From Naegleria gruberi (Eukaryota), in assembly GCA_000004985.1 (NCBI GenBank), contig GG738856.1: 64,000 bases of DNA. The stretch is one strand, 5' to 3'. Below the pieces are notes generated by a model that had not been told where the DNA came from, did no database searches, and saw only the letters and a list, made by a program, of their open reading frames with translations. The position numbers and the translations under genes were made by a program. Every line of letters starts with the position of its first letter. Positions within the stretch are counted from its first letter, which is position 1. This document shows, in pieces, positions 3,601 through 56,280 of the stretch.

Positions 3601-4230
3601 ATTCATTTGATGCATATACAAGTGCTCTACCATCTTCTCTAACCACTTCCAGCACAACTTGTTTATCATTCTTCCATTCATCAGATGCATGTTCATGTGC
3701 TCTACCATCTTGTTTAACTGCTTCCAGTACTATTTCCATATCATTCTTCAATTCATCTGATGCGTATTCAAGTGCTCGACCATTTTTTTTAACTGCTTCC
3801 AGAACAATTTCATGGTCATTTCTCAATTCATCAGATGCATATCGAAGTGCTGAACCATCTTGTCTAACTACTTCCAGAACAATTTGTTTGTCATTCTTCC
3901 ATTCATCAGATGCATAACCAACTGCCCAACTATCTTGTTTACTAGCCTCCAATACAAATTCCATATCACTCTTCAATTCGTCGGATGCATATCGAAGTGC
4001 ACTACCATTTTTTTTTACAGCCGTTAAAACAATTTGTTTGTCATTTCTCAATTCATTTGATGCGTATTCAAGTGCCTCACCCTCTTGTTTGACAGCTTCC
4101 AGAACAATTTCATGATCATTTCTCAATTCATTTGATGCATATTCAAGTGTTGAACCATCTTGTTTGACAGCTTCCAAAACAACTTCCCTATCATTCTTCA
4201 ATTCATCAGATGCAAAGGTAAGCAAACAGC
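3601..4230. repeat. 99-nt tandem repeat (about 6.4 copies, roughly 80% identity) encoding 33-aa repeats
   Basis: Units of the form ttcatcagatgcat...tcaagtgct...accatcttgtttaactgcttccagaacaatttg recur every 99 nt and continue into the N gap. Confidence 0.85.
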
Positions 4231-4531
4231 CGAGATTTCTAACTACTTCCTTGATGACTTGTTTGTCATTCTTGAATGCATCGGCTACACTCTCGAAATT
4301 GTGAGAGAATTTTTTGAAGTAATCCATCACGAAGGATCTATCGTGCATGAATTCGATTGGAAGAAATCGATCATCCACCCTATCACGATTATCCATCCAT
4401 TTGATCAAATCTGTTTGATAATTGTGGAACTTGTTTAGTAGATTTGAATAACATGTTCCAATTCCGAAATCTATTAACTCAATAATGACAGAACAAGTTT
4501 TGCAGTCATCATTGTGTTGTTGTTGGGACAT
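3601..4531 (-). CDS. DUF4116-like 33-aa tandem-repeat protein, 3'-partial (runs into the gap)
   Basis: Minus-strand translation from the ATG at 4531..4529 gives MSQQQHNDDCKTCSVIIELIDFG..., then at least six 33-aa repeats of the form ALEYASDELKNDxEIVLEAVKQDGR(A). The frame is still open at 3601 where the N run begins. The repeat consensus resembles the DUF4116 family (named from memory, not searched). The plus-strand ORF 4160..4438 in the track is its antisense artefact. Confidence 0.7.
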
Positions 4532-4781
4532 TTTTTCGGATCTTAATTCCAAGTTTCGGCAGGATTACAAAACGAATGAGACCAACGGTCCAGTTCATTA
4601 ACAGGTTTGACTTGTTTGACCATTACATCCACCTTTTCTTGAATCCACCAGACAAGGGAATAAGTTAAATACAAATATTTAAAGTTGGTGCAATTCGAGA
4701 TCTAAAGGAAGTTAATACCGATCAGGTTCCTTTAAATTTTCAAAGTTCAAACTAAACAATTCGAAACTTCACATAAAAAAA

Positions 4782-11369: not shown

Positions 11370-12248
11370 ATTAAAAGTGGTTCCAATTAATTTAAATGCA
11401 TTAGTAGAGGATTTGTAACGATATTTTTCGATCCTTCTTGACTGTTACTATTAAGTATGTGAAACAGAAAGTTATTCAACAGCAAGTCAATGAACAAAGA
11501 CAATTTGAAGATAATAACATGTTTATTGGTAATTTCTCATTATTAAATTCCTCTGTTTACCATTGTTGTCAAATTTAATGTATCCGAGGTTGTTGCACCG
11601 TTTGCTCACTCAAAGATTACTTTCAGTGCAAACCTGATTAATTAATTTCAAGATTACTTTCTATCACAGTATCATAGCCACATAACAAAAACATCAATGT
11701 CCTCCAATGAACATTGATAAGATATTATTAATAATACCTCACAGAAAGATGCACACTTCAAGCGCAACACATTTTTGTTGAAGGTGAAAAAGACCAAGAG
11801 AAGATTCGAAAGAGAGAAAAAATAAATCACAGAGAGCCTGGATTTTGCTTCAACCTCTTAACTGAAGAATTATAACAATATTTGAAAGAGACAAAAAAAT
11901 GTTGAAACAATCATCCCTCTCAGCACCGAACCAAGAAAAGACTGCTTTTTCATATAGTCATATCTTGGTTGTGCTCGCTAAAGAATTTCCTTCACTTGAG
12001 AAGGAAGTTACAACATTTCAAAAAAAGGTTTGTTTTTAATGGACAAAGTACATGATGGATAACAAAATGATATTATTGAAAAACAATCATCCGATTATTA
12101 AAATTAGATATCTAACTCTTCCGATACTGACCAATATATTATAAAGGGTATTCAAACATATTTAATATCTTTATTTATTAAACAAGAATATACATACACT
12201 ATTGCTAGAATTTGTAAACCTATTTTACCACTTCTAGTTGCACAAGTA

Positions 12249-21200: not shown

Positions 21201-24200
21201 TTGTTATGGAGAATTTCTAACTTGGAAACAAACTCTGCTGATGAAATTAAGAAGATTGCCTTAGGCATTCCTTCATTGCTTCACTTTGTATGGATTTACT
21301 GGAATGAAAGAGTTTGGGAAAATACCTACAATACATCCATGTTTGAAAATTCTGATTCTACTGAAACTCCAGTTTCGAGAGATGATCTTGCTGGTCCAAA
21401 CAGATTATTCCAAGATGTTAACTCTGTGCACATTTTGAAATTGTTGAGTGGTTGGGAAAATATTCCTATTCGTTCAAGACATATCAAGATTGACCAACTT
21501 AAGAAGGTCGTACAATTCATTTGTACAAATGTTGATAATGTACAATCTGAAGAAGTAGATTGGAATAATCTTGTTTATTTGTATTGTGATACTTTGTTGA
21601 GTTTCAAGAAGAGCTTCCCAGAAGCATCTTTCCAACTCTTGTTAGATATTACTGATTCTTTGTGTGCAACTAAACAAGCTTCCGTCCAAGATCTTACTAA
21701 GATTATTGAATCATCAAATGATGGAAGATTGAAGGCTAAGAAAAATGATATCATTTCTGTTTGCAATCTCATTTGCACAAGAGATGAAGATAAGAATAAG
21801 GATTTGATGAATCGTGGTTTGGCTTGGTTAAAGTTGGGTGAAACTAGAATGAATTTGTTCATTCCAGCCAATTCTTTGGATCCAACTTTGAAGTATGCAA
21901 TTTATGATAAGCATCTCAAGGAAGATATTCAAGTTCTTCAAGGAAAACTTGAAATTATGACTTCTATTGAGCGTTTCATTAGCGGAAGTGGTAGAAATAT
22001 CATTTCTGACAAGATTGAAAAGGATATTACAAATATTCAATCAATTGTTGATAAGATAACTCCAAAGGTTATTAACAGACCAACTAATATTTCATTCATT
22101 GATATGTATCGTGAAATGAAGAGTTTGGCTGACCAACATGAAGTTATCAAGAACTTGTCTAATAGTTTGATAAAGTTCTTTGAAAGTGATAATGATGACA
22201 AGCAAGATATGGTTGCTGAACTTATCAATAAGGAAGAATCCTATCAAGCAAACAGCCACTCTCACATTAAATCAAAGATCTTGAAGAATTCGTTTGGTTT
22301 TGAAGATTTGGCATTGCCATTTGCTTCATCTGCTTATCATATCAAGTACGGTTTGAGATTATTATGTTATGGTTCACTTGCTAAGAAGGATGAGTCTGAA
22401 CAAAATACTGTCAATCAAATTTTGAACCATCTTCTCTCCTTCCCATCTTGTAACTCGGTTCAAACTATTGAAGATGATTTGGCTATCGTTCAACAATGGC
22501 TCAAGTCTATTGAAAACTCTGCCAATACACAATCCAAGTGTAAGCAATATGAAACAGCTACCAAGGTTTTGCGTGTCTTGATGTCCAGATGTTTGTTGAT
22601 TACAGTTTCTCAAACTTCCAGCCAAGACAATACAATCCATAACCTCCAATTATTGAACCAAGTTTTCGTAATGTACTCTAACTTGTTCGAATCTGTTGAA
22701 GATGAACTTGAAAAGAAGAAGGCTGAAGAAGACAACTTCTACAAGTACAAGGAAAGAAAGACAACAATCGAAACTGAAGAAGAAATTTTGGAAGAAGAAA
22801 TGGAAACCATGTTCCCAACTTATAGCGAAGATTATTCTCAATTCAATGCACCAACCGAGGAAAAGAATATTATGAATTTGTCAGAGAAGAAGGAATCCTT
22901 GATATCTGAAAAGTCACTCTTGGAAAGAGTTAACAAGGTTATTCATGATGAAAGAGAAATTGACTACTTGGTTCGTACTCACAAGGATATCTTCTCCTTC
23001 ATCTCTTCCTCTAGTCAACTTAGACCTGTTGATACTATTGACACTATTAGAAATAAGATGTTTGACGAATCCTTTAATGTAGCTGTTCATATCATTAACA
23101 CACTCAACGGAAAATACCAAATTGATATGACTTCTTCAGGATATCTTCCACTTGTTCTTTTCGGAAGTAGAGCATTGAATAATCTCTGGGTTAAGGTTGA
23201 TAATTCAAAGGAAGCTAAACTCAAGGCATACAGTGAAGTTTACACTGAACCAAATATTCCAGAAATTACTCTTGCTTTCAGCACTCTCTTCAGTATGCTT
23301 CAAAGATTGAACTTCTTGATCAAGAAGTACAGTACTGAAGAACAAAAGGGTCACCCAATCCTTGTAGAAATGGTCAAGATTATTGAACATATTCTCAATC
23401 AACCAATTACTAGTCCAATCATTAAGATTCTTACTGGTCTTGAATTAGTATTAATCAAAGCTGGTGAATGGGAAGAATATCTTACAGCTCATGTAAATTC
23501 TTTGAAGGATGAAATTAGAAAATTATCTGGTCTCATTATTAGATGGAGAAGAATGGAATTAGAAAACTGGAAGGGTATTTATGATTTGAAGAATAGAGAA
23601 TACAAGAACAAATCTATTAATTGGTGGTTCAGATTCTACAATATGATTTGTAATAGTAGTTTCAAGATGGAAGAACTCACCAAGATCATTGAAGACTTCT
23701 TTGGTATTTGTGATGACTTTATCAGAACATCAACCATTGGTGACTTTGAATATCGTCTTGGATTGTTGAATAACTTCTATCAACATTTAGCTGCAGAAAT
23801 TGAAAGAAAGTATTCTGATGATGTAGAAGTTAGAACTAAGATTAGAGATATTATTTTCAATTTGCACAAGTATTATTCTCAATTCTCCGGTAAGCTTGAA
23901 GAAAGACTTGACCAAGAAAAGCAACCTTTGGAAACTAAACTCAGAGACTTTATCACTCTCACTAAATGGGAAGATGTAAATATTGATGCCATCAGATTCA
24001 CAACTAAGAAGTCTAGAAGAGCCCTTGCTAAATTCTCTAAAGGTTTTGGTGAAGTTCTCGTCAAACCAGCTAGAGATTTGTGGGACAAGTATGATGAACT
24101 TGCTGCTGCTTCTGAAATTATCCAAGAATCTGAGAAGAAGCCTAAGAGAAAGAGCAAGAATAAGAAGATCAAGAAGAGAAAGAATAAGAAGTTTATTGCT

Positions 24201-27200
24201 GATGAACCAGACGACATTATTCAACAAACTATGAACAGAGGCAAGAATCTTATCAAGAGCCACGAATTTAAGAATTGTCTTTCATATACCAAAAAGGAAA
24301 AGGAATTGCTTTCTGTTATTGAAAAGGAATTTATGGAAGATTCCAAGAATGTTGTAGATAGACTTCCAGTTATTTATGAATTGGTTGGAAAGAACTTTGA
24401 AAACTTGATCATCAAGAGTGCTGTTCCAAAGGAATTTGATGCTGTAACAAGCAATATTGAAGATTTTAGTGTTGAAATTATTGAACAAACCCAACTTCTC
24501 AACAAGGAAAATTCTCCAAAGAGTATGAAATTGAGAGCTCTCGTTACTTTGTTGACAGAACTTAAGGAAATGGGCATTTCCTACTTGAAGAAGAGTGTTG
24601 GATCTGAAACTGCTATTGACAAGATTTTCCAAATTCCAGATGTTGGATTCTCATTGAATAACCTCACTTCAAATGATGTTCAAGAAGTTTTCAAGAAGGC
24701 TGATGACTATTACTTTAAGAACATTTTCAGTGTTCAAAACTTTAAACTCACCTTTGAAGGCGAAGTTTCTGGTGATATCAAGTCTCAACAAACCAAGATG
24801 AGAGGTTATCCAGACAATTTGTTCTTCCTCACAATGAAACACAGAAGAATCTTGGGTACTATTGAAGCAAGCCAAAAAGCTAATAAGTCTTTCCTTTCAA
24901 CCTTGAAACATTTGAAGCAAAGCTTTGAAAATGAAAAGGATGAAGGTGTTATCATTTCACAAAGCAAGGCTAGAGAATTGTTGAATGTACAATCAGGATA
25001 TGTCTTTAGACTCTATGAATTGGTTGCCCAAATCACTTCTCTATACACAGCTCTCTCAAAGCATGATAGTGCTTATGATAAACCTTTGAAGACTATTGAA
25101 GATGCCAAGAGTATCATTGATAGAAGCGTCGATCTTTTAGAAAGAATTATGAATAGAACTCAACTCTTCAGTACTAAGGATTTGAAGGAGCTTTCCGAAA
25201 ATCTCGAGACTTTGCAAAACGCTAGAGGTATTCTCAACAAGTTTGTTTCTGAAACCTCTGATCTTCCAAAATCAAAGGAATTGATTAGTCTTGTTGAAGA
25301 GTTTGATCAAGTCAAAACTACCTATGAATCAATTGTTGCAGAAGAAGCCAGTAATAACAAGTTTGATTTGGCTTCTATTTCATCATTTGCCAAGCTTTAC
25401 AAGCATGCTGTCAAGTCTATTCAATTGACTATCCAAGATTTGGTAAAGGCTTGCTCTGAAGAACAAGTTCAATATGAAGAAACTATGAAATCAGCCTCTG
25501 AAGAACTCAAGAATAGAAAGAAGGAAGATGATGAAGAAGATGACACTTACTCTGCTTCTTACTTGAGCAAGAATAACTCCATTCAAAGACTTGAAGAATT
25601 TATTGATAGATGTCATGGAGTTATCACTACTGGTTTGGCCAAGATTAACAAGGACATTTCTGGAATGATTGAATTCATCGTTGACAATAGTAAGAATTCT
25701 CAAAACATTACAAACAGTCTTACAGAATTGTTGAGTAACTTAGCTCCATTATTGCAAAGATTGGATGGTGTTGTTGATACCCTCAAGATTCCTCTTGTTT
25801 ATTATCACAAGAGTATTTCCAAACTCACTTATGTTCTCCTCAATATCTTCTCAACTTTGTGCAAGCAAGGTTTCTGTGGTAAGGATGACGAAGAACAAGG
25901 TGAAGGAGAAAGTGATGGTGTTGACTTTAGTTCTGGTACTGGTATGGACGATGGTGAAGGTATCAATGATATTGGTGATCAAATTGACAATGAAGATCAA
26001 TTATTGAACGAAAAGGATAAGCAACAACAAGAAGGTAATAAGGACCTTGAAAAGAACGATAATGCTATCGAAATGGACGGAGACTTTGAAGCTGAAAAGC
26101 AAGAAGTTGACGAACAAGAGGATGATGAGGAACAAGATCAAGATGAAGAACAAGATGAAAATAAGGAAATGGGTGAAATAGATGAAGATGATCCAAATAA
26201 GGAACAACTTGATGAAAAACTCTGGGACGAAAATGAAAATGACAGAGATGACAAGACTGAAGAAGGTTCCGATAAGAATGACAATCCTCAACAACAAGAT
26301 AGCGAACTTCAAGCGCAAGAAAATGAAAATGATGATCATCAACAAGATAATAGAAAGGACAAGCAAAAGAAGGATGACAAGCCAATGGAATACGAAGAAG
26401 ATGAAGAAGCTGTTGAACAAGAAGAATTCGAAGATAATATGGATGATAAATTCAATGATGAATTCCAAGACCAAGATAAGGATGGTGAAGATCAAGATGG
26501 AAAAGACAATGATCAACAAATGGATGATTTGGAAATTTCTGAAGATGAACAAGAAGGCGATGAAGAAAATCAAAATGAACAAGAAGGTGATGAAGAAAAC
26601 AAGGATGGTGAAGATAAGGAAGAAGGAGACAATGAAGATGCTGACGGTGATGAAGACTTGAAGAAGAAGAAGGATGAAGAAATTGATGAACAAGTTGACA
26701 CCGAAGATATCGCTCCAGAAGACCAAAATATTAGTGGACAAGATGAAGACAATCAAGATGCTATCGATCCAAACTTGGAATCTGAAAACAAACAAGAAAA
26801 GGACGAAGATGGCAATGATGACGAAGATGGTGAAAAGGAAAATGAACAAGAAGAGGAAGAAAAGGCCCATACTGCAGAGGAAGAAGCTGATTCTAAGGAT
26901 CTCAAAGAAACTCCATTTGGTGTTAAACAAACTGCTGGTAAAGCTTCTGATATTAAGGAAGATTCAGCTGAAAATGAACAAAGACAAGAAAAGAAGAATA
27001 ACAATGCTGAAGAAAGTGGTAAAGACACCAATAAGAATGAAATGGGTGAAAGTATGGATCAAGGTACTGATAATAATGCTGACCAAGAGCCAGAATCCGG
27101 CCAAATGCAAATGGATCCAAATCCTCTCAGAAGCTTGGGTGATGCCATGAAGAATTGGAAGAAGAAGCTCAACCTCGTCGAGAGAAACAAACAAGAAAAT

Positions 27201-28598
27201 GAAAAGAACAAGCAAGATGAAGGTGAAAAGAGCGAAGCTTTTGAGTTTGTTGAAGAAAATGATGCCGATAAGGACCAACAAGAAAATCAAATCTTGTCTA
27301 ATGCCACCGAAGAACAATCTAAGGAGTTCCCAGCAATGGAAGATGGCGAAGAGGATGATGAAGATGAAGAAATGACTGAAGAAAAGAAGAAGGATGAATT
27401 TGGTGAGGAAAAGAAGAAGGACGAAAAGGAAGGTAATAATGCCGACTCAAAGCCAAGTATTTCATCCAAGTTGGATAAGAAATTAGAACAAGACGAAGAC
27501 GAGGATGAAGATATGGAAGATATTCAATTTGAACCTTCAAATAAGAAGGTAGATTTTGTCCAAACCAACTTTGAAAGTACTATCCACACCAAGACTGAAG
27601 CTTTAGAAGAAGAAATTGAGACTGAAGAACCAGAAATTAAACCATTAAGTATGGATGACATTAAGATGATGAGAGAAGAGCTTGAATCATCTCTCAACGA
27701 ATGGAGAAATAATGAAGAAAATGTAAACAATAGTAAGGAAATTTGGAAGAAGTTTGATATTTTGACATCAAGCTTGTCTCAAGAATTGTGCGAACAATTA
27801 AGATTGATTCTTGAACCAACTTTGGCTACTAAACTCAAGGGTGACTACAAGACTGGTAAAAGAATTAACATGAAGAAGATTATTCCTTATATTGCCAGTC
27901 AATTTAGAAAGGATAAGATTTGGCTTAGAAGAACAAAACCAAATAAGAGAGATTACCAAATTCTTTTGGCTATCGATGATTCCAAGTCTATGAATGATAA
28001 CCATGCTGGTCAAATGGCTTGTGAAGCTTTAACATTGATTTCTAGAGCCATGTCACAACTTGAAGTAGGTCAATTAGGTGTTGTTAGCTTTGGTGAAAAG
28101 ATGAAATTGTTACATCCTTTCGAGAAACCATTCACTGATGAAACCGGTGCTGAAATCCTCTCTCAATTCACATTCAAACAAAATCAAACTCAAATTGTTA
28201 ACTTCCTGTCAGATACCATTCAACTTATGGAAAATTACAAGTCTATGGAATTCTCTAACAATAGCGAACAATATCAATTGGCATTTATTATTTCAGATGG
28301 TAGAATGTTAGAAAGAGATAGAATTGTTAAATTGGTCAGAGAAGGACAGGAAAAGAAGATTCTTTTCGTTTTCATTTTGATTGATAATCCAAATCCAAAG
28401 GATTCTATTCTCAATGTAAAGAGTATCAACTCTACTTCAGATCCAAAACAACCATTAACATTTAGTTATTATATTGAAAAGTTCCCATTCCCATTCTACA
28501 TAATTTTGAGAGACATTCAAACTTTACCTGAAGTCTTGGCCGATGCTCTTCGTCAATACTTTGAATTAATCAATCTCACTGCTAATGAACAAGTTTAA
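12249..28598 (+). CDS. MDN1: midasin (MDN1/Rea1), 5449 aa, single 16.35-kb exon
   Basis: Six AAA P-loops in order: GIIGSGKT (12948..12971), GETGVGKT (13965..13988), GPTSAGKT (15279..15302), GDTGTGKT (16152..16175), GSPGVGKT (17412..17435), GPSACGKT (18387..18410). About 560 aa of D/E-rich linker follow. The C-terminal VWA/MIDAS domain has LLAIDDSKSM (DxSxS at 27975..27989), and the tail EFPFPFYIILRDIQTLPEVLADALRQYFEL matches the conserved midasin C-terminus. A short upstream exon is possible (see findings). Confidence 0.95.
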   Translation: MDKLNNNNNTTDSNYDTINAITKILPLYPQFKTFIKQYFKDRPSLIESIVNNHQEDKIDQKQLITLLEITLRLLIFAPSDFCKMWNWSPFFSLLKHKNKDIKSLTSKCVSIILKLDDQFFNSKIDNLKTYVLEEIESEELVHLENTLSFYDDTETSNMETTTEETRDKLIISHKSDSMVNVCGVWLHKNLREIKSSQQNISADKTKLIFTKTSLENMRSLALGVAQENPIILEGIIGSGKTAYVEELARITGNTDLIKVNLDESFDSKDLLGTYVCTDVPGEFRWQPGALTKAVMEGRWILIEDLDLAPFDIISSIIPLVESGNLFLPSRDEIIPASTGFQLFATQSLVESLNGTTTRQRVLPMSNLWTKVRVNKLPSKEIEHILKVKFESIQQLIPKFIETYDALRSGHISDDSEKSEKQSSESTQLKSFGRLFSFRDLLKWCERVQRFYGQKIQKNQNYVLSQIKRDIFHEAIDVFCGMIAKHDIYDSVVGTLALVWEIYNYEEYLKTYKPQLHEEKGVITVGRISLERDEKNLGELLNKNSNFAHTKQSLRMMERVGACIKMNEPILLNGETGVGKTTAVQYLANLMGKKLLVHNLNQQTDSADFIGGYKPVDLKILAASVKSNFEQLFSVTFPSKENEVTLKKVRDLYTKKSWAQFIMMLNKIIDLADQKLSKVDEVVDEKLEEVDSKKRKKTQGSSSGTKKQKTSDKTSTLKQYWTKFKESVDKFNQQQILVQNSFAFSFVEGTLVKALKEGHWILLDEINLASTETLERLSSLLEGEEGTLFITEKGDTEPIKRHPNFRIFACMNPPTDIGKKNLPPGLRNRFSEFYVHELTDKDDLKIVVSRYLSTVPHPPVDDIVNFYLDVKKKSEAELSDGASQRPHYSLRTLTRSLDYAVFVMKDYGMERSLYEGFSMGFLTLLSSACSSTVEKMIRTCFFKQKNVDNSLKQAPSQPASGDFVLFKHFWLPQGQFAPEQPADFIITDTVEENLKNLARAIKTNKYPVLLQGPTSAGKTSMVQYLAKMTGHKFVRINNHESTDLQEYFGSYITNSQGKLVFQEGILVEAVRNGYWLVLDELNLAPSDILEALNRLLDDNRELFIPETQETVKPHPHFQLFATQNPPGLYGGRKVLSRAFRNRFLELHIDEIPRGELVTILHRRCQISNQHAEKLVSVMRELQQRRQSSKIFAGKSNITPRDLFRWAERMKGADEKINYNQNAAEEGFMLLAERLRRDEEKDIVKEILEKVFKTKLDLERMYNPKELDNLQVAGSTIVWTKTMKRMYVLVGKCLQFSEPALLVGDTGTGKTTVCQVYADIYEQHLRILNCHQHTETSDILGSLRPVRGREKLKIELEELIEEFITTANTKYSLDINFGNETSIGKKVKRLEDICKKLAKERKLAEPQKKKQKNEFKEKELLEKQLIIRDIYQKWKALFTWYDGPLVQSMKSGEIFLIDEISLAEDAVLERLNSVLEPSRELTLPERGSEKIESIVAHDKFRILATMNPGGDFGKRELSPALRNRFTEIYVPSLSVSEDLAIIVASKLDQSIKSFNTRMVEFVQFFKSKRTKRLLSVRDVISWVQFMNMAVAKLDMDAYGAFLHGVDTVILESIGVGTDSSAKNRLLLRKECFTFLLDKIAQENVLSTEQLEYYRDVFLNENYTAIRSNKTKESSEYFGYHPFYVKCGESSERKIVYALDAPTTGRNVMKVLRAMQLRKPLLLEGSPGVGKTSLISAIAKASGHNIVRINLSEQTDMMDLLGTDLPVEGSSGGQFRWCDGIFLRALRNGDWVLLDELNLASQSVLEGLNSVLDHRAEIYIPEINETVKCPEGFRIFACQNPLQQGGGRKGLPKSFLNRFTQVYVDELRPEDLTFILNSIHGDIGEENIKLMIDFNRKMHKETMELYRFGRKGSPWEFNLRDVFRWCELLKKERELNKDCTKPIDPMRMIDCMYKQRMRTVEDRKHVERVYKELTGKDFPCETNPTYTITPGAVQIGSSILLKNSSFDDSDKDNHAPSTSSQDLILLQSFLNPLENIMKCIEMNYLTIVNGPSACGKTSIVRLIAQMTGNMLSEFSMSSSTDTVELLGGFEQVDPIQKVRKIASFIKIKIDELARIAFLNDENLRFDALKLLYNQWTTYDATAKKDASFSGIEQLKSMCETLFDNLEYQSDEKQAIIQQLDNLSKLLEMGVKGRFEWNDGVLIRSLEAGNWILIDNVNFCNPTVLDRLNSLLEPEGVLVVNERGLVDGEIRIVKPHPHFRIFMVMDPKYGEISRAMRNRGIEISMFPITIPSQDAFTLLANNGVPSAHLCNVLMDYHAKFTQKIFLPEEDRPTIRDLLRCAEVFNSEVKQGLNITNAFKAAISCVYIRSRCSSKSAVDIAESELEECAKQLPRNDHGFPSTFVAANAFKCDKSLFRTVFRQSARLYDIIRNYLSLKVAESNDHNDSTKKLLDSLKWKILVTDLPPHFLQTNDVEKTIISADVMDTSSTSNLINDMQYALEYFIDVSSFKDIDIRVIWLQRLLTLCKSDKILEELLTKGIELLNTRKGCEVSKKIQKIFKNMQQTVTQRFSEIIASQPMNLKYSEQLFARLQYLGLINEQDNYVFDAATILTSQQKRKYEEQQSIAVEFQGTIVENKSSLLHQSYYYHLNPKHRSTAPNRVVVHLYTLFVQIDELVDAIMNSKVDESVCSLDDISGMLRCRDKLWFYLSHTAELSEEFFIYWNWLAKEFLKVKVKKPATSGKKKNISETPYGLYEQLCTFMGEIDGLVISNFNSVGKKNTLYKNCGKPTISLSVELKEIEDTITNYLSVNTSSNTESKELKQLVYNAMSTVKLLQQEPNHPDQEKLLQYVRTVPELLEKAKPKEQEISEDVYTPYKELATKSEQELVMDKIFRDIAEFTAPDKKHINAASLHSTQAISPLFDYKSMHHEMNVVTLLSKIGYILKRLDASSDVKEIKRLLSTAVAKGRHLIDFILQNCSRGPLDLVPYQLLLWRISNLETNSADEIKKIALGIPSLLHFVWIYWNERVWENTYNTSMFENSDSTETPVSRDDLAGPNRLFQDVNSVHILKLLSGWENIPIRSRHIKIDQLKKVVQFICTNVDNVQSEEVDWNNLVYLYCDTLLSFKKSFPEASFQLLLDITDSLCATKQASVQDLTKIIESSNDGRLKAKKNDIISVCNLICTRDEDKNKDLMNRGLAWLKLGETRMNLFIPANSLDPTLKYAIYDKHLKEDIQVLQGKLEIMTSIERFISGSGRNIISDKIEKDITNIQSIVDKITPKVINRPTNISFIDMYREMKSLADQHEVIKNLSNSLIKFFESDNDDKQDMVAELINKEESYQANSHSHIKSKILKNSFGFEDLALPFASSAYHIKYGLRLLCYGSLAKKDESEQNTVNQILNHLLSFPSCNSVQTIEDDLAIVQQWLKSIENSANTQSKCKQYETATKVLRVLMSRCLLITVSQTSSQDNTIHNLQLLNQVFVMYSNLFESVEDELEKKKAEEDNFYKYKERKTTIETEEEILEEEMETMFPTYSEDYSQFNAPTEEKNIMNLSEKKESLISEKSLLERVNKVIHDEREIDYLVRTHKDIFSFISSSSQLRPVDTIDTIRNKMFDESFNVAVHIINTLNGKYQIDMTSSGYLPLVLFGSRALNNLWVKVDNSKEAKLKAYSEVYTEPNIPEITLAFSTLFSMLQRLNFLIKKYSTEEQKGHPILVEMVKIIEHILNQPITSPIIKILTGLELVLIKAGEWEEYLTAHVNSLKDEIRKLSGLIIRWRRMELENWKGIYDLKNREYKNKSINWWFRFYNMICNSSFKMEELTKIIEDFFGICDDFIRTSTIGDFEYRLGLLNNFYQHLAAEIERKYSDDVEVRTKIRDIIFNLHKYYSQFSGKLEERLDQEKQPLETKLRDFITLTKWEDVNIDAIRFTTKKSRRALAKFSKGFGEVLVKPARDLWDKYDELAAASEIIQESEKKPKRKSKNKKIKKRKNKKFIADEPDDIIQQTMNRGKNLIKSHEFKNCLSYTKKEKELLSVIEKEFMEDSKNVVDRLPVIYELVGKNFENLIIKSAVPKEFDAVTSNIEDFSVEIIEQTQLLNKENSPKSMKLRALVTLLTELKEMGISYLKKSVGSETAIDKIFQIPDVGFSLNNLTSNDVQEVFKKADDYYFKNIFSVQNFKLTFEGEVSGDIKSQQTKMRGYPDNLFFLTMKHRRILGTIEASQKANKSFLSTLKHLKQSFENEKDEGVIISQSKARELLNVQSGYVFRLYELVAQITSLYTALSKHDSAYDKPLKTIEDAKSIIDRSVDLLERIMNRTQLFSTKDLKELSENLETLQNARGILNKFVSETSDLPKSKELISLVEEFDQVKTTYESIVAEEASNNKFDLASISSFAKLYKHAVKSIQLTIQDLVKACSEEQVQYEETMKSASEELKNRKKEDDEEDDTYSASYLSKNNSIQRLEEFIDRCHGVITTGLAKINKDISGMIEFIVDNSKNSQNITNSLTELLSNLAPLLQRLDGVVDTLKIPLVYYHKSISKLTYVLLNIFSTLCKQGFCGKDDEEQGEGESDGVDFSSGTGMDDGEGINDIGDQIDNEDQLLNEKDKQQQEGNKDLEKNDNAIEMDGDFEAEKQEVDEQEDDEEQDQDEEQDENKEMGEIDEDDPNKEQLDEKLWDENENDRDDKTEEGSDKNDNPQQQDSELQAQENENDDHQQDNRKDKQKKDDKPMEYEEDEEAVEQEEFEDNMDDKFNDEFQDQDKDGEDQDGKDNDQQMDDLEISEDEQEGDEENQNEQEGDEENKDGEDKEEGDNEDADGDEDLKKKKDEEIDEQVDTEDIAPEDQNISGQDEDNQDAIDPNLESENKQEKDEDGNDDEDGEKENEQEEEEKAHTAEEEADSKDLKETPFGVKQTAGKASDIKEDSAENEQRQEKKNNNAEESGKDTNKNEMGESMDQGTDNNADQEPESGQMQMDPNPLRSLGDAMKNWKKKLNLVERNKQENEKNKQDEGEKSEAFEFVEENDADKDQQENQILSNATEEQSKEFPAMEDGEEDDEDEEMTEEKKKDEFGEEKKKDEKEGNNADSKPSISSKLDKKLEQDEDEDEDMEDIQFEPSNKKVDFVQTNFESTIHTKTEALEEEIETEEPEIKPLSMDDIKMMREELESSLNEWRNNEENVNNSKEIWKKFDILTSSLSQELCEQLRLILEPTLATKLKGDYKTGKRINMKKIIPYIASQFRKDKIWLRRTKPNKRDYQILLAIDDSKSMNDNHAGQMACEALTLISRAMSQLEVGQLGVVSFGEKMKLLHPFEKPFTDETGAEILSQFTFKQNQTQIVNFLSDTIQLMENYKSMEFSNNSEQYQLAFIISDGRMLERDRIVKLVREGQEKKILFVFILIDNPNPKDSILNVKSINSTSDPKQPLTFSYYIEKFPFPFYIILRDIQTLPEVLADALRQYFELINLTANEQV
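25870..27540 (+). repeat. low-complexity D/E/K-rich linker inside the midasin CDS
   Basis: GAA/GAT/AAG-dominated sequence. It generates the long F/I/L-rich and S-rich antisense ORFs in the six-frame track (for example 26001..26930 minus). Confidence 0.9.
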
Positions 28599-30739: not shown

Positions 30740-31867
30740 TTATTTATTCAAATACTTAACTTCCTGAGTCAATTTACAAGTGTAATGATGAGCAGATTGA
30801 TAAGACTCATATTTAGTCCACCCACTCAATTTAAACTTGTAATATCCAACATCTATCACACCCGTGTAATTACATCCGTAAACACTTGAGGTTTCTGCCA
30901 AAATCTGAATCCCATAATTGCCATATTTGCTGTTTGATCCTACCAGTCCAATTAAAGAGCTATCTGTTGCTATCGTATGGTTATTGTAATACCACCTACA
31001 GCGATATCTATCGGATAAGGTATCAGCTCTAAAGAATATTCCAAATCCAACCCTTCTAACACTTTTATCCGAATTTGTTGAGTTTCCAGATTTAAGATTT
31101 TCAAAATGTTTGGCCAAATCTGAAGGCATGCACAGTTTGTAAATATGTTTCAAATTCTTTGGAATAACTCCACAACTCTCTGCAAAATGGCTCACATCAA
31201 ATATAAAGGCATGTTCACTATTATCCATTTTTCCAATTACAATATATCTATCAAGTGATTCCTTTTCCTCATTGAAATAATTAGTTTTCAGCTTGAAGTA
31301 AACTTGATGATTATCATGATCGATAATCGTTATAAGAGAATTGATAATTTCCTCTTCATTCTTCAATGCATAATTTGTGAATTTGCTCAGCTCTGAAATT
31401 GAATTACTATAATTGAAACAAATCTCAATTCTTAAAGTATCAATAGGCATGCATTTCTCTGGAAACAATACCTTGTCCTTCTCGACAGAACAAGGTCTTG
31501 CTACTTGACCAACCACCAATGGTTGCGAATCTTGACACGTGAAGGTCACATTAAACATGGCATTTTCTCCTGTATTAATTTCCTTGCACATATCCATCAC
31601 ATTCTTTACTCGATCATAAATATCACTTGATCTAGTAGGCATTCCAATGTTTTCTCGTGAATTTTTCTTTTTAAATTGCATGGTAGGAATGTCAAGTTTC
31701 AATTTAATTAAATCTTTCAACATGGATGTGAATGATTCCGAATGTTGATATGAATTTTCCACTTTTCTTGATGATGGTCTTGNNNNNNNNNNNNNNNNNN
31801 NNNNNNNNNNNNNNNNNNNNNNNNNNNNNNNNTTGGATGATACTTTGGAGTTAAATAGAACTCTCAT
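30740..31867 (-). CDS. hypothetical protein (contains an assembly gap; N-terminus uncertain)
   Basis: A 375-codon ORF spans the 50-N gap at 31783..31832. No recognisable motif. Confidence 0.4.
   Translation of the reverse strand: MRVLFNSKVSSXXXXXXXXXXXXXXXXXXRPSSRKVENSYQHSESFTSMLKDLIKLKLDIPTMQFKKKNSRENIGMPTRSSDIYDRVKNVMDMCKEINTGENAMFNVTFTCQDSQPLVVGQVARPCSVEKDKVLFPEKCMPIDTLRIEICFNYSNSISELSKFTNYALKNEEEIINSLITIIDHDNHQVYFKLKTNYFNEEKESLDRYIVIGKMDNSEHAFIFDVSHFAESCGVIPKNLKHIYKLCMPSDLAKHFENLKSGNSTNSDKSVRRVGFGIFFRADTLSDRYRCRWYYNNHTIATDSSLIGLVGSNSKYGNYGIQILAETSSVYGCNYTGVIDVGYYKFKLSGWTKYESYQSAHHYTCKLTQEVKYLNK
31783..31832. other. assembly gap (50 N) plus a single n at 31891
   Basis: A 50-N run is the usual placeholder for a gap of unknown size. 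Confidence 0.95.
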
Positions 31868-49613: not shown

Positions 49614-51911
49614 TTAATTTAATTGGAAACTTCTGCTCAATATTTCTTCTTCTCGCAAGTGTTGTTTGAATTCCGCCAGCTTGTTTCTCAAACTTTTGAT
49701 GGCTTGAATCTTTCTAACCAAAATACAATCTAAGCTTGTTACATATTTGTCTATTGTTGATTGAGGTTGATCAACATCGTTCAGTAATTCCATTTCTTGT
49801 TTCATTAATTCCATAATGTCATCAATATGTTCTCTGTGTTGGGCAATAACCTCTTCTTCCTCGTCTAAAATCTTACTGATTAGTTCTTCGTGAGCTCTCT
49901 CAAGTTCTGCCTCTCCTACATCTTGGAAGTGAGGAGGTAAAACAACTTCATTATTTTCTTGCATAATATCGGCATCATCAAAATCTTCATCATCTAAATC
50001 TTCGTCCACAATGTTATCAGAAGTCTCATAGTCTTGTTTATCATAATCCTTAATATCATATTCTTGCTTATCATAGTCATCCATTTGCATATCATCATCT
50101 TCAACTTGATAATTATCAACTTGATAGTTATTATTCACTCTCATTTGGTTATTGATATTTTGATTAATGTTCATATTTTCGAACACTGGTTGTTGGGGTT
50201 GAGGAGTAGGAGTGAGATCTTGCCTTGGTTTAGCGGCAGCTTTACCATTTCCACTTCTGAGTTCTTTAACTCTGTCAGCATATCTCAATGTATTCAAACT
50301 GTGTTCGCACGAATTAGAAGATGGTGAGGCATTAGCAATCATTACAGTCTTGGAGTTTCCTATAAAAGAATCTTTCAATACTTCTGTCAGTTTGCTTCCT
50401 CTGAATGGAACGTGACTCTTACCACGATCCAAAGATCTAATACATTCCTTAAGTGCCAACAAACTCTTATTGATATCAGCACCTTCCAACCTTGTTTGCT
50501 TGTCACTGTTCTTTGTATCAGCACCTCGTTCAGAACCAGCAAGATCTATGAATGAGAATTTACCATATGGCTTATCATTGTACTTTAAAACAATTTGTAA
50601 TATAGCATGGGAACGTGAGGAGTCAGAGTTAGCACCAGTTGAACCAGTAGCTCTGATGGAAAGACCTGTATCTATCATACCCATCAAATCTTCTACACTA
50701 TTTACACTATTTTCTGTCAATCCGCAAATACTGACCATATTCTTAGCATCTTCACGAGCAAATACCTTCTTTCTATTATTCAACAAATCAAATAATTTAC
50801 CACCATAAATTTCATAAAAACTGATCCAAACACTCAATTCTGACGAGAGTCTTTGAAAAATGTCACTAGCAGCAAGTAAATATAAACCCTTTTGTCCATT
50901 TTTACCCATCATGGTAAATGTTTTACCACTTCCTGTTTGTCCATAAGCGAAACAAGTGGCTTTACCCTTATTGAAAATGTGATCAACAAGTGGTCTAGCA
51001 GTCTTATTATAAATTTCAACGTTATCACAATATTCATCAAATATTTCATCAAAACAGAATTGATGTTTTTCTACAAATTTTGTAAGATCGACTTTTTGTT
51101 TAGGTTCGTGTATAATTAACTCGTTATCATTTACAACTTCCAAAATATCAGTTTCACCTCTATTCTTTTCGTTATCATTAAGAGGTCTTTTACGAACAGC
51201 AACTACAATATTTGATCTTTGTCTTTTGCCAGCTGCTGGTGGTTGAGCTTGTTGCTTATTAATGATATTATTATTATTGATAATGTTATTGTTGTTGCTA
51301 ACAACATTAACCATTGGTTTACGAGGTTGTTCTTGTACAACAGGAGTTGATTTCACTGGATTCCTTACTACTTTTGGTTGAGCATTATTTTGTTGCATAA
51401 TTTGTTGGAGTGATTGTACTTTTGGAGCTTGGAATTGAGGTTGAGAAGATGCTGGTCTCTTATTGACCACATTATTATTGTTAACTTGATGGACTTCAAA
51501 GGCATCGAAATTGGTATCGTTATTGTTACCCATATTATTCACGGCAGCATCCCAATCATAGAGTGATTCTTCGGCATTGCCATAATTTTCTTTCTCATCA
51601 TCAACAAATGCCTGTGCTTTAGGATTCAAATCTAAAGCAGGACATCTATTGAGTGCCATTTGTTCATTCTCAAAATTTCCACCTGATGATGAAGATGATA
51701 TATTTTTCTTGGCCACTTGTATTAGTTCAAAGAATTTTCTTCTATCTCCTCCGTTGGATACACCAATTTTATTGGCGACATCTTGTACTGATAGCTGTGC
51801 AATAGCTTCAATACTGGTTACTCCGTTTAATTTTAATTGAGAGTAGTAATGATCGAGTGAAGCCTTCTCGAGATATTTAAACAATACAGAAGAGGCGCTC
51901 TCTGAAGGCAT
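49614..51911 (-). CDS. kinesin-13 with an N-terminal SAM domain (KIF24-like)
   Basis: The central motor has the kinesin-13 KVD loop ([24 protein letters not shown]) and the P-loop [21 protein letters not shown] and [11 protein letters not shown] are present, and the motor is internal, which is typical of kinesin-13. The N-terminal 70 aa ([56 protein letters not shown]) fit a SAM domain, as in centriolar KIF24 (from memory). Confidence 0.8.
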
Positions 51912-51961
51912 AATGATGTTACTTCAATTTTTTTTTAATATTTAGAATTTGGAGGTTTAAA

Positions 51962-52141: not shown

Positions 52142-53294
52142 TTACTTTTGCAATTTGCTCAATGCAACACCTACTGTGAAACCACTGGCAAGCATTGATG
52201 CTACACCAATCATTCCACCAAAACTCAAATTAGCCATTTGGGATAAACCTTGTCCAGAAGTGCAACCATGTCCAGCTCTTGCACCAAAGAGTAATAAGAA
52301 ACCAGATGCTATAGCCCAGCACTTTTCCTTATTACTGAGCTTCTTTGGTTCAGCACGAGTACCAGCAAGATAGGAGGAAAAATAACTTCCTCCAACAATG
52401 CTCAAATCAGAAATCAATTGCCACAAATATTTAGCACTCTTTGAGATTGTGAATCTTTCAAAGTACTCTTGCTCAACTGGCAAGTATCTAGTAATAAATG
52501 TTACTGCAGTAACAAATGCGGACGAAGTTCCCAACGTAGTTTTACAAATTAGATTAACTGGTACTTGGAGAGCTCCCAAAGCAAGACCAGAATAAATTGG
52601 GTGCCATTGTCTTCTCTTGAGGAGACACTTTTCAGTACTGATGAGATCAGTCTCTGGAGTTGGAAAGAGCTTTTCCAAAGTACAAGCAATACCAACAAGC
52701 ATTGTACCTACTGGCAATGCAATGCTCCACATTGGTTTACCAAGAAGTCCATGAAGAGTATTGAATGATCCTGGAACTTCTGTGGATTCCAATAAACTGT
52801 TAACAGTAGGATTATTGATCACAATTCCATAGACAGTAGCTCCAATAATACCACCCAACAAAGTATATAAAGAAGATGGTACACCTTCACCAGCTTGGGC
52901 CAAAACTATTAATTTCCAAATCAAAATCAGCATTCCAAAAAAAGAGAACTGTTAAATCACATACTCACAAAAAATAGTAATACTAACCTGTACCAGGACA
53001 TGCACCTCCTAGAGCCATTCCAACACCCATAATAGCACCTCCAGAGATTGTACTTCTGAGATTAATATTAATTGGGGAGAGTGTTGCAACACCCATCAAA
53101 TCCAACAAACCCAAAGAAATTGTACTTGCTCCCGAAGCAGACAAGAAGGTCTTCATCATGGACCAACTTTTTAGAGCCATTTGGTTCTTAATATTTTCAG
53201 GAGAGGACATTCTACTCTTTTGCAAAATTATACCAAAAGCAAGACCTTCTGGAATACCAACACTGATGGCAGCAGTACAACTTGGACTAGACAT
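52142..53294 (-). CDS. YeeE/YedE-family (sulfur-transport domain) membrane protein-like, 2 exons
   Basis: Exons 53294..52988 and 52948..52142; intron 52949..52987 (GTTAGT...CAG, 39 nt). The join is in frame: ...GGACPGTG|VLFFGMLILIW... Polytopic and hydrophobic. Two copies of the family hallmark G-x-x-x-G-x-C-x-x-G, near the end of each half (GMALGGACPGTG and GARAGHGCTSGQG). Confidence 0.55.
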
Positions 53295-53757: not shown

Positions 53758-56280
53758 ATGAATCAATCGCCTAATCATCTTCTTCAACACTTTAACGATT
53801 TGGATGCCGAATTTCATCAGGCGGATAAAGATAGGGACAATATTTTGATTCCACCTGAAGCTAAGGTTTATTTTGACCAATTTGCTCTTCCTCTTCCTGT
53901 GATGAAATTTATTTGGGGATCTTCAAAAACAACTCCAGCACCTGGCTTGACTCTTGATGAATTTAAACATGCCATGCAAATGATCCGTCAAGAACTTATG
54001 AATCCTGGAAGTCTTCCTATTAATCAAGGTGGACCAAATTTCCAACCACCACAACAACAAGGTTTTGATTACAGTATCAGATCAGAAGATCGCGATACTT
54101 ATGAAACCAATTTTTCCAATTTGGCTAGAGGAAAATATACAATTTCTTATGATGAATGTATGAATTTCTTCTCCAAAGCAGGTCTTCCTAATGATATTGT
54201 AAATACAATTTTCCAATTGGCTGATTTTGAAAAGAACAGAGTTTTGGACAAGGAAGAATTTGTGATTGCTATGCACTTGTTGAGATTAAAGAGAAAGATG
54301 CCAAATATGCCAATTCCTAACCAATTACCACCTGTTTTAATTCCTCCATCTAAAGCTAATGTTACACCAACAAGTTTGTCTGCTAGTCCAAGTTTGAGAC
54401 CAAGAAGTGAATCAACAACTAGCATGGATAGTATTAATGCCCCACCAACACTTGTTTCTTCATCAGGAACTCTTGGATTTAACAACATGTCTGGTGGTTT
54501 AACTCCTTTGAATAATTTTGGAAATAATATGATGATGGGAGGTCCACCACCTTTGAATAATTTTGGAGGTCCAAACATGATGGGAGGAGGTTCAAATCAA
54601 ATCAATGTTGGTCCTGTTAGAGATATGGAAAATCAAATTAACAGAGTTCTCGATGAAACCAGAATGTTAAATCAACAATCCTTCCCACTCAGACAATCTG
54701 TTGAACAAAATGATCTCAGATTAAACGGTCTCCGAGAAAGAAAGGCTGATTTGGAAAATGATTTAAACCAAGTTCGTCAAGAATTTGAAAGTTTAAAGAT
54801 GCAAAATCAAGCTAAGGTTGAAGAAATCAATTCTCTTGAAGCTCAATGCTATACTTTCGAACAAGAAAGAATGGAATTCCAAAACCAAATTCAAAGAGTT
54901 AGACAAGAATCCATGCGTCTCGAACAACTCTTTGAAAGAGCTCAACTCTCTTTCCAAAGTGCAAGTGGTGTTGTTGATGCATTGAAAAGTGAATTGGAAC
55001 AAGGTGTTAACGAACTCATTCACCATAAAGATGAATTATTCAGGTTGAAGAACTCAACAGACCAAGGAGATGAACAAACACACATGATTGAACAAGAAAT
55101 TAATAATGCCAAGAACGAATTAATGATGGTTAAACAACAATTGATGGAAGCTAGACAAGCCAACGAAGAATTACAATTGAAGATCCGTGGTTTGCAAGTT
55201 CAAAAGCAAGATGTTGAACAAACAACTTTCCAAACCAAAACCGAATTGAGCAATCTCGTTTCCCAAAATGATGATCTTAAGAATCAATTGATTAGAGTTC
55301 AAACCGAATTTGAAAGCCAAAAGCAAAAAGGTGTTCCAAGCGCTAAGCTTGTCAAGCTCGCATCTTTTGTTAAACAAATCCAAGAATATATTCAAAGCTT
55401 TGATTCTGCTCTCCAAGAAGAATTCCCAAATGATACACCTTTGCAACTCAAGCAAGTCTCACCTATCAGCACAACAGTACCTATTACAAAGGCCAGTTCT
55501 GGATTTGGAGGTTTTGATAACGACGACTTTGGTTTTGATAACAAAAATGGTAATAAGGGAGGCTTTGGCAATGACGATTTCGGTTTCAATGTTCCACCTC
55601 CAGTTGTCACTGCAAACACTACCAAGGTTCCAACACCATCTTCTAAACCAGTAACTCCAAGCACTGGATTTGTTAATACTGTTCCAACTGTCAAAGCCCA
55701 AAGTCCAAGCTTTGAGCAACCAAAGACCAATACTGGATTTGGAGGTTTTGATAACGACGATTTTGGATTTGACAACAAGTCAGGAAATACTGGGTTTGAT
55801 GCTGATTTCAGTTTTGGTAACGACTTTGGCAAACCTGCTACTACTTCCCAACCACCAAAGGCAAGTTCAGGATTCGTTAATGACGATTTCGGATTTGATG
55901 CCAAGCCAGCCACATCTCAACCACCAAAAGCCAACCCTGGATTTGGAGGTTTTGAAAATGATGACTTTGGTTTCGATAGCAATAATGGTAATAAGGGTAG
56001 TTTTGATACAGATTTCGGATTTGAAGCTGATTTCAACAAGCCAGCCACAACTCAACCAGCCACCACTAAGCCAGCTGCTACTCAACCAGCTCAAGCAACT
56101 GGTTTTGATGATTTTGGTTTTGATAACAATACTAACACAACATCTGGTGGGTTTGATGATTTTGGATTTGACAACAATGCTACTAAATCCACTTCTGATC
56201 CTTGGTCTGATTTCTCAGCATCAAACTCTACAATCACAAAGGAAGCTGCTCAAGATGATTGGGCTTCTAGTGGTTGGTAA
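53758..56280 (+). CDS. EH-domain endocytic scaffold (Eps15/Ede1-like): 2 EH domains, coiled-coil, C-terminal D[DN]FGFD repeat array
   Basis: EH1 is FDQFALPLPVMKFIWGSSKTTPAPGLTLDEFKHAMQMI. EH2 is YETNFSNLARGKYTISYDECMNFFSKAGLPNDIVNTIFQLADFEKNRVLDKEEFVIAMHLL. About 230 aa of Q/E-rich heptad coiled-coil follow, then about 8 DDFGFD-type repeats and a terminal DPWSDF. The real start is probably the ATG at 53758 (aaaaaaaATG); the track ORF starts 23 codons earlier. Confidence 0.75.
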   Translation: MNQSPNHLLQHFNDLDAEFHQADKDRDNILIPPEAKVYFDQFALPLPVMKFIWGSSKTTPAPGLTLDEFKHAMQMIRQELMNPGSLPINQGGPNFQPPQQQGFDYSIRSEDRDTYETNFSNLARGKYTISYDECMNFFSKAGLPNDIVNTIFQLADFEKNRVLDKEEFVIAMHLLRLKRKMPNMPIPNQLPPVLIPPSKANVTPTSLSASPSLRPRSESTTSMDSINAPPTLVSSSGTLGFNNMSGGLTPLNNFGNNMMMGGPPPLNNFGGPNMMGGGSNQINVGPVRDMENQINRVLDETRMLNQQSFPLRQSVEQNDLRLNGLRERKADLENDLNQVRQEFESLKMQNQAKVEEINSLEAQCYTFEQERMEFQNQIQRVRQESMRLEQLFERAQLSFQSASGVVDALKSELEQGVNELIHHKDELFRLKNSTDQGDEQTHMIEQEINNAKNELMMVKQQLMEARQANEELQLKIRGLQVQKQDVEQTTFQTKTELSNLVSQNDDLKNQLIRVQTEFESQKQKGVPSAKLVKLASFVKQIQEYIQSFDSALQEEFPNDTPLQLKQVSPISTTVPITKASSGFGGFDNDDFGFDNKNGNKGGFGNDDFGFNVPPPVVTANTTKVPTPSSKPVTPSTGFVNTVPTVKAQSPSFEQPKTNTGFGGFDNDDFGFDNKSGNTGFDADFSFGNDFGKPATTSQPPKASSGFVNDDFGFDAKPATSQPPKANPGFGGFENDDFGFDSNNGNKGSFDTDFGFEADFNKPATTQPATTKPAATQPAQATGFDDFGFDNNTNTTSGGFDDFGFDNNATKSTSDPWSDFSASNSTITKEAAQDDWASSGW
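55495..56190 (+). repeat. coding tandem array of G-F-G-G-F-D-N-D-D-F-G-F-D-N-K-x-G-N motifs
   Basis: At least eight DDFGFD / FGFD units separated by G/N/T-rich spacers, with nucleotide-level similarity between units. Confidence 0.8.

Follow-up and report, generated by a model that had tools for sequence, protein, structure and literature searches.

What a protein with the layout of an endocytic scaffold might do with a disordered tail full of short phenylalanine-rich repeats is the question raised by a gene in a 64,000-nucleotide stretch of Naegleria gruberi contig GG738856.1 (assembly GCA_000004985.1), referred to below as the window. The gene is a complete single-exon coding sequence on the plus strand (53758..56280; ATG at 53758, stop at 56278-56280) specifying 840 amino acids plus stop, and its translation is identical over the full length (100% by BLASTP) to an N. 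gruberi protein at NCBI (P0001) that carries only the database name "EF-hand domain-containing protein". The C-terminal tail of this protein contains repeated units built around the sequence DFGF, and the comparisons described here give good support to the view that these units are short linear motifs kept under selection as an array, which an oligomeric endocytic scaffold displays on its disordered tail. Neither the family nor its architecture is new, and multivalent acidic-phenylalanine arrays are likewise known in principle; the F..DFGF form of the motif appears to be new.

The tail (amino acids 556-840, 55423..56277, plus strand) is modeled by AlphaFold2 (AF2) without secondary structure, at a predicted local distance difference test score (pLDDT) of about 30, and contains no Pfam domain. 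Between amino acids 559 and 840, Phe, Asp, and Gly each account for 12% of the residues, Tyr, His, and Cys are missing altogether, and the charge balance is acidic (D+E = 37, K+R = 18). Eight DFGF cores are present (six DDFGFD, one DDFGFN, and one TDFGFE), together with one DADFSF. Each of the eight has a further Phe 1-4 residues before it, so the unit is more correctly written as F-x(1-4)-D-F-G-F-[DEN]; of the 35 Phe residues in the tail, 27 fall inside F..DFGF units. The first-pass annotation of this DNA, made from the letters alone, had counted about eight copies of a longer repeat with the core D[DN]FGFD. Its number holds for the DFGF cores, but the full 13-mer GFGGF[DE]NDDFGFD occurs in only three copies, and a DNFGFD variant is absent from the N. 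gruberi protein. It had also placed the array in a tail equivalent to that of Eps15, and this agrees with what we see: the array occupies the predicted disordered region that follows the coiled coil, the site of the DPF array in Eps15.

With one degenerate copy included, nine copies are strung along the tail, separated by spacers rich in Pro, Thr, Ser, and Asn that place successive cores 15-61 residues apart (all coordinates on the plus strand). Copies 1 and 3 both read GFGGFDNDDFGFD (amino acids 582-594, 55501..55539, and amino acids 660-672, 55735..55773, respectively), and copy 6 reads GFGGFENDDFGFD (amino acids 728-740, 55939..55977). Shorter units are found as copy 2, FGNDDFGFN (amino acids 603-611, 55564..55590), copy 5, FVNDDFGFD (amino acids 706-714, 55873..55899), and copy 7, FDTDFGFE (amino acids 749-756, 56002..56025), and the degenerate copy 4 is FDADFSF (amino acids 680-686, 55795..55815). 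The last two copies, both FDDFGFD and both including an FxDF element, lie at amino acids 783-789 (copy 8, 56104..56124), where the aligned orthologs have DDFGDF, and at amino acids 799-805 (copy 9, 56152..56172).

When the tail was shuffled 20,000 times, DFGF appeared 0.07 times on average and three times at most, against the eight cores observed, and no 4-mer of any kind exceeded four copies. Across the other open reading frames of at least 100 amino acids in the window, which amount to about 20,000 amino acids, there is a single [DE]F[GS]F. The motif copies differ in their synonymous codons (GAC/GAT, TTT/TTC, GGT/GGA), and Tandem Repeats Finder detected no DNA repeat across them, which together argue against a recent DNA duplication as the source of the array. 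Judged from this codon variation, the array is maintained at the level of protein sequence.

Orthologs are present in N. lovaniensis (60% BLASTP identity), N. fowleri (59%), an ENA entry of the Naegleria group (P0004; 55%), and Willaertia magna (44%). Counted without an alignment, the five tails, including that of N. gruberi, contain 8, 9, 8, 7, and 6 FGF cores, with an expectation of at most 0.5 in each as determined from 5000 shuffles per tail, none of which reached the observed count (0/5000). Phe makes up 12% of each of the five tails, and Tyr, His, and Cys are missing from all of them. In the alignment, the invariant tail columns lie mostly in the F-G-F cores, in DPW.DF, and in an N-S-x-x-T-K ... 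W-A block, whereas the spacers are unconserved and the number and position of copies shift among species. The first-pass annotation had named a lack of conservation among orthologs as the outcome that would speak against it; instead, six to nine FGF cores are found in all five heterolobosean orthologs. The array is thus also carried by the pathogen N. fowleri.

These comparisons bear directly on neutral low-complexity drift, by which the D/F/G repeats would be an expansion-prone filler without selected function. Variation in copy number and position from ortholog to ortholog is what such drift would produce, and D/F/G arrays have originated independently in unrelated proteins, bacterial ones included (see below). 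Drift does not, however, explain why the motif is kept in five species while the spacers diverge, why FGF lies far above shuffle expectation in each ortholog, or why the copies use different synonymous codons with no repeat at the DNA level, and we regard it as exceedingly improbable.

An exhaustive HMMER search with the tail against 1.84 billion cluster representatives returned nothing beyond the Naegleria cluster except two low-complexity matches, a repetitive P/T/H-rich open reading frame without a Pfam domain and a mucin WxxW-repeat protein, both of which we rejected as spurious. At the sensitivity of HMMER, and as far as sequence similarity can tell, the array is confined to this heterolobosean clade, in keeping with its earlier description as lineage specific. 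A word-index protein search with the same tail gave no matches, the query itself included, although phmmer scores the self-match at 559 bits; this outcome reflects a limit of the index on low-complexity sequence rather than a true negative. A profile search with EH1-EH2 recovered just six short fragments.

The N-terminal part of the protein contains one unambiguous EH domain, EH2 (amino acids 109-202, 54082..54363, plus strand; Pfam EH, E=3.5e-15). Its closest PDB structure is human Eps15 EH2 (1eh2), with E=3.8e-12 for the single sequence and 1.2e-14 for a five-ortholog profile, and the match covers the conserved P-x-P-x-x-LPPxLxPPSK extension of the Naegleria domain. At amino acid 151 (54208-54210), a Phe (IFQLADFE) stands at the site of the NPF-pocket Trp of Eps15 EH2 (VWELSDID). 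Phe occupies this site in N. gruberi, N. lovaniensis, N. fowleri, and P0004, and Trp in Willaertia. To go by this residue, NPF binding by Naegleria EH2 may be altered or lost.

EH1 (amino acids 5-81, 53770..54000, plus strand) is divergent and retains a pocket Trp (W53). The first 87 residues gave no match in Pfam or PDB sequence searches, and profile-profile alignment with hhalign pairs amino acids 1-87 with EH2 (probability 78%, E=1.9e-5). The AF2 model of this region, at low confidence (pLDDT 52-72), adopts a four-helix EF-hand-pair topology with short beta bridges, and the EH1 and EH2 halves are modeled with a common topology of two helix-loop-helix units. When the EH1-EH2 model, itself of low confidence, was run through Foldseek, only EH domains came back, with weak E-values, and EH1 gains no support from them. 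Taken with the profile alignment and the model, a second N-terminal EH domain has moderate support.

Between EH2 and the coiled coil lies a disordered linker rich in Ser, Pro, Gly, Asn, and Met that contains NNFG elements (amino acids 203-284, 54364..54609, plus strand); the AF2 stretch 184-284 has a pLDDT of about 30 and no secondary structure. The repeated NNFG and PPPL elements of this linker are kept in the three named Naegleria species and have diverged in P0004 and Willaertia. The linker leads into a long helical, predicted coiled-coil region (amino acids 285-555, 54610..55422, plus strand), modeled as helices at 285-432, 438-523, and 528-555 with a pLDDT above 90 across most of its length, and giving weak coiled-coil Pfam matches. 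No UIM or UBA was detected anywhere in the protein (Pfam, E<=1).

The EH-EH-coiled-coil (EEC) layout is a pan-eukaryotic core that was the source of Eps15 and intersectin, and outside the opisthokonts EEC proteins occur without extra globular domains (Dergai 2016, PMC4824007), an account with which the lack of UIM and UBA matches agrees. Having a bona fide EH domain, a second EH domain, and a central coiled coil followed by a non-globular region, the protein is, on sequence and model evidence, an EEC endocytic scaffold of the Eps15/Ede1/AtEH type. The earlier proposal of an Eps15-type EH scaffold is therefore borne out by the Pfam EH match, the match to 1eh2, the hhalign result for EH1, and the AF2 coiled coil. 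The C-terminal UIM or UBA that defines opisthokont Eps15/Ede1 in the strict sense was not found.

Animal Eps15/Eps15R, which consists of three EH domains, a coiled coil, a DPF domain, and UIMs, is alike in its N-terminal EH domains, its coiled coil, and its disordered tail with an acidic-phenylalanine array, and F/G/D-rich peptides, SFGDGFADFSTL among them, are found in Eps15 as well (PMC1540706). The Naegleria protein differs in having two EH domains instead of three, with EH1 highly divergent and Phe in place of the pocket Trp in EH2, and in having F-x(1-4)-DFGF-[DEN] instead of DPF and no detected UIM or UBA. Its best matches outside the Heterolobosea are fungal Ede1-like and Pan1-like proteins, which also combine EH domains with a coiled coil but, unlike the Naegleria protein, are about 1300-1450 amino acids long and have UBA or WH2. 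The tails of the Ede1-like proteins contain sparse DPF, GF[DG]D[DN]F (an FxDxF form), occasional DFDFGF, and a DPW near the C-terminus. These are one to four scattered motifs, with at most one DFGF and never an array, compared with nine copies in Naegleria.

Conservation in the Naegleria tail is highest outside the repeat, over roughly the last 27 residues, a terminal module reading DPWSDF...NSTITKEA...DDWASSGW (amino acids 814-840, 56197..56277, plus strand), in which an NS[VI][IT]TK(E/S) block stands between DPW.DF and the terminal Trp. DPW[SN]DF, N823, S824, T827, K828, W835, and A836 do not vary among the five orthologs. DPWSDF had been taken as the end of the protein; it lies at amino acids 814-819, with 21 residues following it, and the C-terminus is DDWASSGW. 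In four of the five orthologs, the C-terminus reads W-A-[SD]-F-[GD]-D-x-F, a WxxF-acidic form. The sandwich-site motif of the AP-2 alpha appendage is WxxF-x-[DE], and the combination of DPW with WxxF-acidic is of the alpha-appendage type. A WxxF that may be of this kind is found in N. gruberi as the WSDF inside DPWSDF and in the other four orthologs as the terminal WA[SD]F[GD]D. In these features, the terminal module looks like classical alpha-appendage ligands.

The same residues can be read differently, with the terminal DDW as a Pan1-type Arp2/3 acidic motif and PW[SN]DF as a clathrin W-box-like sequence, in which case the FGF units would serve the clathrin or actin machinery. A DDW is indeed close to the C-terminus in both N. 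gruberi and Willaertia, PWxxF is similar to the PWxxW W-box, and the plant AtEH/Pan1 proteins have been described as homologous to Pan1p, which activates Arp2/3 (PMC6853982). Around the Trp, however, acidic residues are not conserved, with EGW and DNW in three orthologs; the protein has no WH2-like element and no long acidic run, and a clathrin box was absent from all orthologs in the motif scan. We consider such a role very improbable.

To compare the repeat with published adaptor motifs, definitions were taken from the respective papers and applied by regular expression. The N. gruberi protein contains no NPF, DPF, or clathrin box, and likewise no FxDxF, [F/L]xxGFxDF, or [D/E]FxD[F/W]; the matches that remain within the repeat are the loose DxF (as DDF) and two FxDF. 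The side site of the beta2 appendage binds the Eps15 peptide SFGDGFADFSTL, for which FxDF is critical, and its consensus is [F/L]xxGFxDF or [F/L]xn[F/L]xDF (Schmid 2006, PMC1540706). Both full patterns have zero matches in N. gruberi, while FxDF occurs twice, as the FDDF of copies 8 and 9, and between zero and five times in the orthologs. Ligands of the alpha-appendage platform carry DP[FW] and/or FxDxF, usually in several copies; here there is one DPW, invariant in the five orthologs, and zero to two FxDxF in the orthologs. Chemically, the repeat resembles such adaptor ligands in its acidic, Gly, and Phe residues, but its sequence is new and, by consensus matching, fits none of the defined pockets. 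The searchable literature yielded no account of either the F..DFGF motif or the tail of this protein, consistent with the first-pass remark that the array was previously undescribed. Two other contexts in which similar sequences occur were considered and set aside: FG-nucleoporin repeats, in which FG, FxFG, or GLFG units alternate with spacers of little charge, given the acidic context of the FGF cores here, the EH domains, and the Eps15-type layout, and the C-terminus of the plant ribosomal P3 protein, GDFGFDLFG, which has a single motif in an unrelated context.

Another published receptor to be weighed is the AP-1 gamma-ear or GGA-GAE domain, which would make the protein a gamma-synergin-like EH protein of the trans-Golgi network or endosome and DDFGFD a variant of [D/E]FxD[F/W], the gamma-ear motif present in epsinR and in the EH protein gamma-synergin (Mills 2003, PMC2172650). 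Repeated acidic DF-G/x-type motifs are common to gamma-synergin and the Naegleria protein (PMC2172650). Swapping the last two residues of DDFGDF yields DDFGFD, and one canonical DFGDF each is found in N. lovaniensis, N. fowleri, and P0004, aligned to a DDFGFD copy of N. gruberi. Gamma-synergin differs, however, in having a single EH domain and the motif order DFxDF rather than DFGFD. The motif [D/E]FxD[F/W] occurs zero times in N. gruberi and in Willaertia, and N. gruberi has zero matches to [DE]FG.[FWLM] or to the ELM GAE pattern. DPW and WxxF-acidic in the terminal module point instead to the alpha-appendage type. EH2 matches Eps15 EH2 at 1e-14 but the EH domain of synergin-gamma at E=0.79, and a layout of two EH domains plus a coiled coil is typical of plasma-membrane endocytic scaffolds (PMC4824007). 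A gamma-ear ligand therefore appears improbable.

Arrays resembling that of Naegleria are also found in other proteins. A scan of JGI metagenomes with a back-translated two-copy DNA pattern recovered DDFGF[DG] arrays in unrelated eukaryotic and bacterial sequences. One eukaryotic locus with 70% GC (ERZ778022 NODE-10977, plus strand, open frame containing 3149-3220; L001) encodes more than 1,100 amino acids with a weak match to the SAPS (SIT4 phosphatase-associated) family, 13 DDFGF[GD] repeats separated by Ala/Pro-rich spacers, and an end of the form ...ADDWSF...ADDFSW. Another, an AT-rich eukaryotic WD40-propeller gene (Ga0307948_1009766, minus strand 1098-6173; L003), is closest to coatomer beta'/alpha (PDB E=2.4e-10), with a weak Pfam match to the COPA/B second propeller, and has an acidic C-terminal tail with four DDDFGFD, DDFNFD, DDFDF, and several [DE]F.[DE]W. 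From these matches it is possibly a protocoatomer-like protein of the TTRAY/TWD40-like kind. In bacterial MMPL/RND-type transporters (L007, L010, and L011), a loop that precedes the MMPL domain contains DDFGFD-like insertions rich in D, F, and G; the Pfam scan covered L007, and the other two were judged similar by eye. A further acidic protein, probably bacterial, also carries a DDFGF[DG] array. To judge by their sequences, the transporter insertions show that this low-complexity array has also appeared in prokaryotes, by convergence. Hence, the sequence pattern alone is not diagnostic for adaptor binding.

From the position of the array and by analogy with Eps15, we favor a reading in which the motif array docks, multivalently, onto platform-type domains of the endocytic adaptor machinery (AP-2 appendages and/or TSET), and we give this about an even chance of being correct. 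In such a mechanism, the coiled coil would presumably oligomerize the scaffold, and each F-x(1-4)-D-F-G-F-[DEN] copy would act as a weak docking peptide for an adaptor platform-type domain, with the AP-2 alpha and beta2 appendages and/or TSET mu-homology or appendage domains as candidate receptors. Many motif copies on an oligomer would then provide high avidity, placing the array in the role held by the DPF array of animal Eps15, and the same multivalency could aid the formation of an initiator condensate. That the residue order is conserved speaks for a specific receptor, a place for which the DPW and WxxF of the terminal module favor the AP-2 appendages; caution is called for, since bacterial proteins contain similar arrays.

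Several observations weigh against this docking role. The N. gruberi repeat strictly matches no published AP-2 or gamma-ear consensus, and N. gruberi alone among the five species has lost the terminal WxxF-acidic motif, with WASSGW instead. In Willaertia, the residue preceding FGF is Ser, Asn, Glu, or Asp, so that the Asp is not conserved there, which suggests a broader core, [DENS]-FGF-[DEG], that was narrowed to D[DN]FGFD in the Naegleria group. In addition, the DDFGF[DG] arrays in unrelated eukaryotic and bacterial proteins indicate that such sequences can arise and be maintained without adaptor appendages.

The main rival to adaptor docking, with which it is compatible rather than mutually exclusive, is a sticker-and-spacer model, by which the Phe-rich units would serve as generic aromatic stickers and, with the coiled coil, bring about phase separation of the scaffold at endocytic sites without engaging a dedicated folded receptor. 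The aromatic content is constant (F 12%) and the spacers are of the P/T/S/N kind in all five orthologs, and comparable D/F/G arrays occur in proteins without an adaptor context. The coiled coil of AtEH1 and the disordered region that follows it, IDR3, promote phase separation in vitro, although IDR3 is itself described as containing putative linear motifs (bioRxiv 10.1101/2022.03.17.484738), and a further preprint (bioRxiv 10.1101/860684) describes liquid-like assemblies of Eps15 and Fcho1. Composition and patterning alone, however, do not predict that the exact order F..DFGF is kept in four Naegleria-group species, that FGF triplets exceed the shuffled expectation 12- to 20-fold in every one of the five orthologs, or that the DPW.DF module is invariant. 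As a full explanation of the array, generic stickers therefore seem to us unlikely, though worth taking seriously.

Within the docking reading, TSET deserves separate consideration, as all six of its subunits are present in N. gruberi (PMC4031984). In plants, the mu-homology domain (muHD) of TML and the TPLATE appendage contact AtEH1 (PMC7909872), and in animals the muHD of FCHo/SGIP, which is homologous to that of TML, reads tandem DPF motifs of Eps15 (PMC4921775, PMC4731787). The TPLATE/TSET-associated plant proteins AtEH1/Pan1 and AtEH2/Pan1 have the EH-EH-coiled-coil-IDR3 layout in common with the Naegleria protein; putative linear motifs have been reported in their IDR3, and TSET is present in both plants and N. 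gruberi (PMC4031984). The EH domains of AtEH1 are weaker matches to Naegleria EH2 (6yet 5e-6, 6yeu 4e-5) than is Eps15 EH2 (1e-14). We consider it quite unlikely that the cognate receptor of F-x(1-4)-DFGF-[DE] belongs to TSET (either the TCUP/TML muHD or the TPLATE appendage) and not to AP-2. If this were the case, then the Naegleria scaffold would preserve an ancestral link between EH proteins and TSET that is seen in plants and persists as a remnant in the pairing of Eps15 with FCHo. The motif would then be the first defined TSET-binding peptide, and an ancient TSET/EH partnership would become testable in a free-living excavate.

Multivalent arrays of short motifs on Eps15-type scaffolds are central to the initiation of clathrin-coated pits, and the motif definitions in use (DPF, FxDxF, WxxF, NPF) come nearly all from animals and yeast. 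In the discoban lineage of Naegleria, where both AP-2 and TSET are retained, the conserved array is built from another motif. It would fit a design, an oligomeric scaffold with a repeated acidic-phenylalanine peptide, that is retained while the peptide itself changes. The repeat also offers a concrete peptide for probing recognition by non-opisthokont adaptor appendages or the TSET muHD; its practical consequence is modest until a partner is established.

None of the genes neighboring the EH gene (a kinesin, a sulphur-transport membrane protein, and a RING protein) is related to the motif array. Upstream of it lie a SAM-domain kinesin (49617-51923, minus strand) and, between the two, a two-exon gene for a sulphur-transport (YeeE/YedE-type) membrane protein (52142-53294, minus strand). 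In Willaertia, a kinesin of similar size (L013 3332-5655, minus strand) is likewise upstream of the EH ortholog, and the proximity of the two genes in both organisms suggests residual synteny. Elsewhere in the window, runs of N at 1-3600 and 31783-31832 represent assembly gaps or masking, the first leaving 3.6 kb without sequence. An uninterrupted open frame of 5,496 amino acids at 12108-28595 (plus strand) contains at least six dynein-type AAA_5 modules with midasin AAA lid domains (Pfam) and a weak C-terminal VWA match slightly under the Pfam cut-off. This is the Naegleria midasin (MDN1/Rea1) gene, which is apparently intronless.

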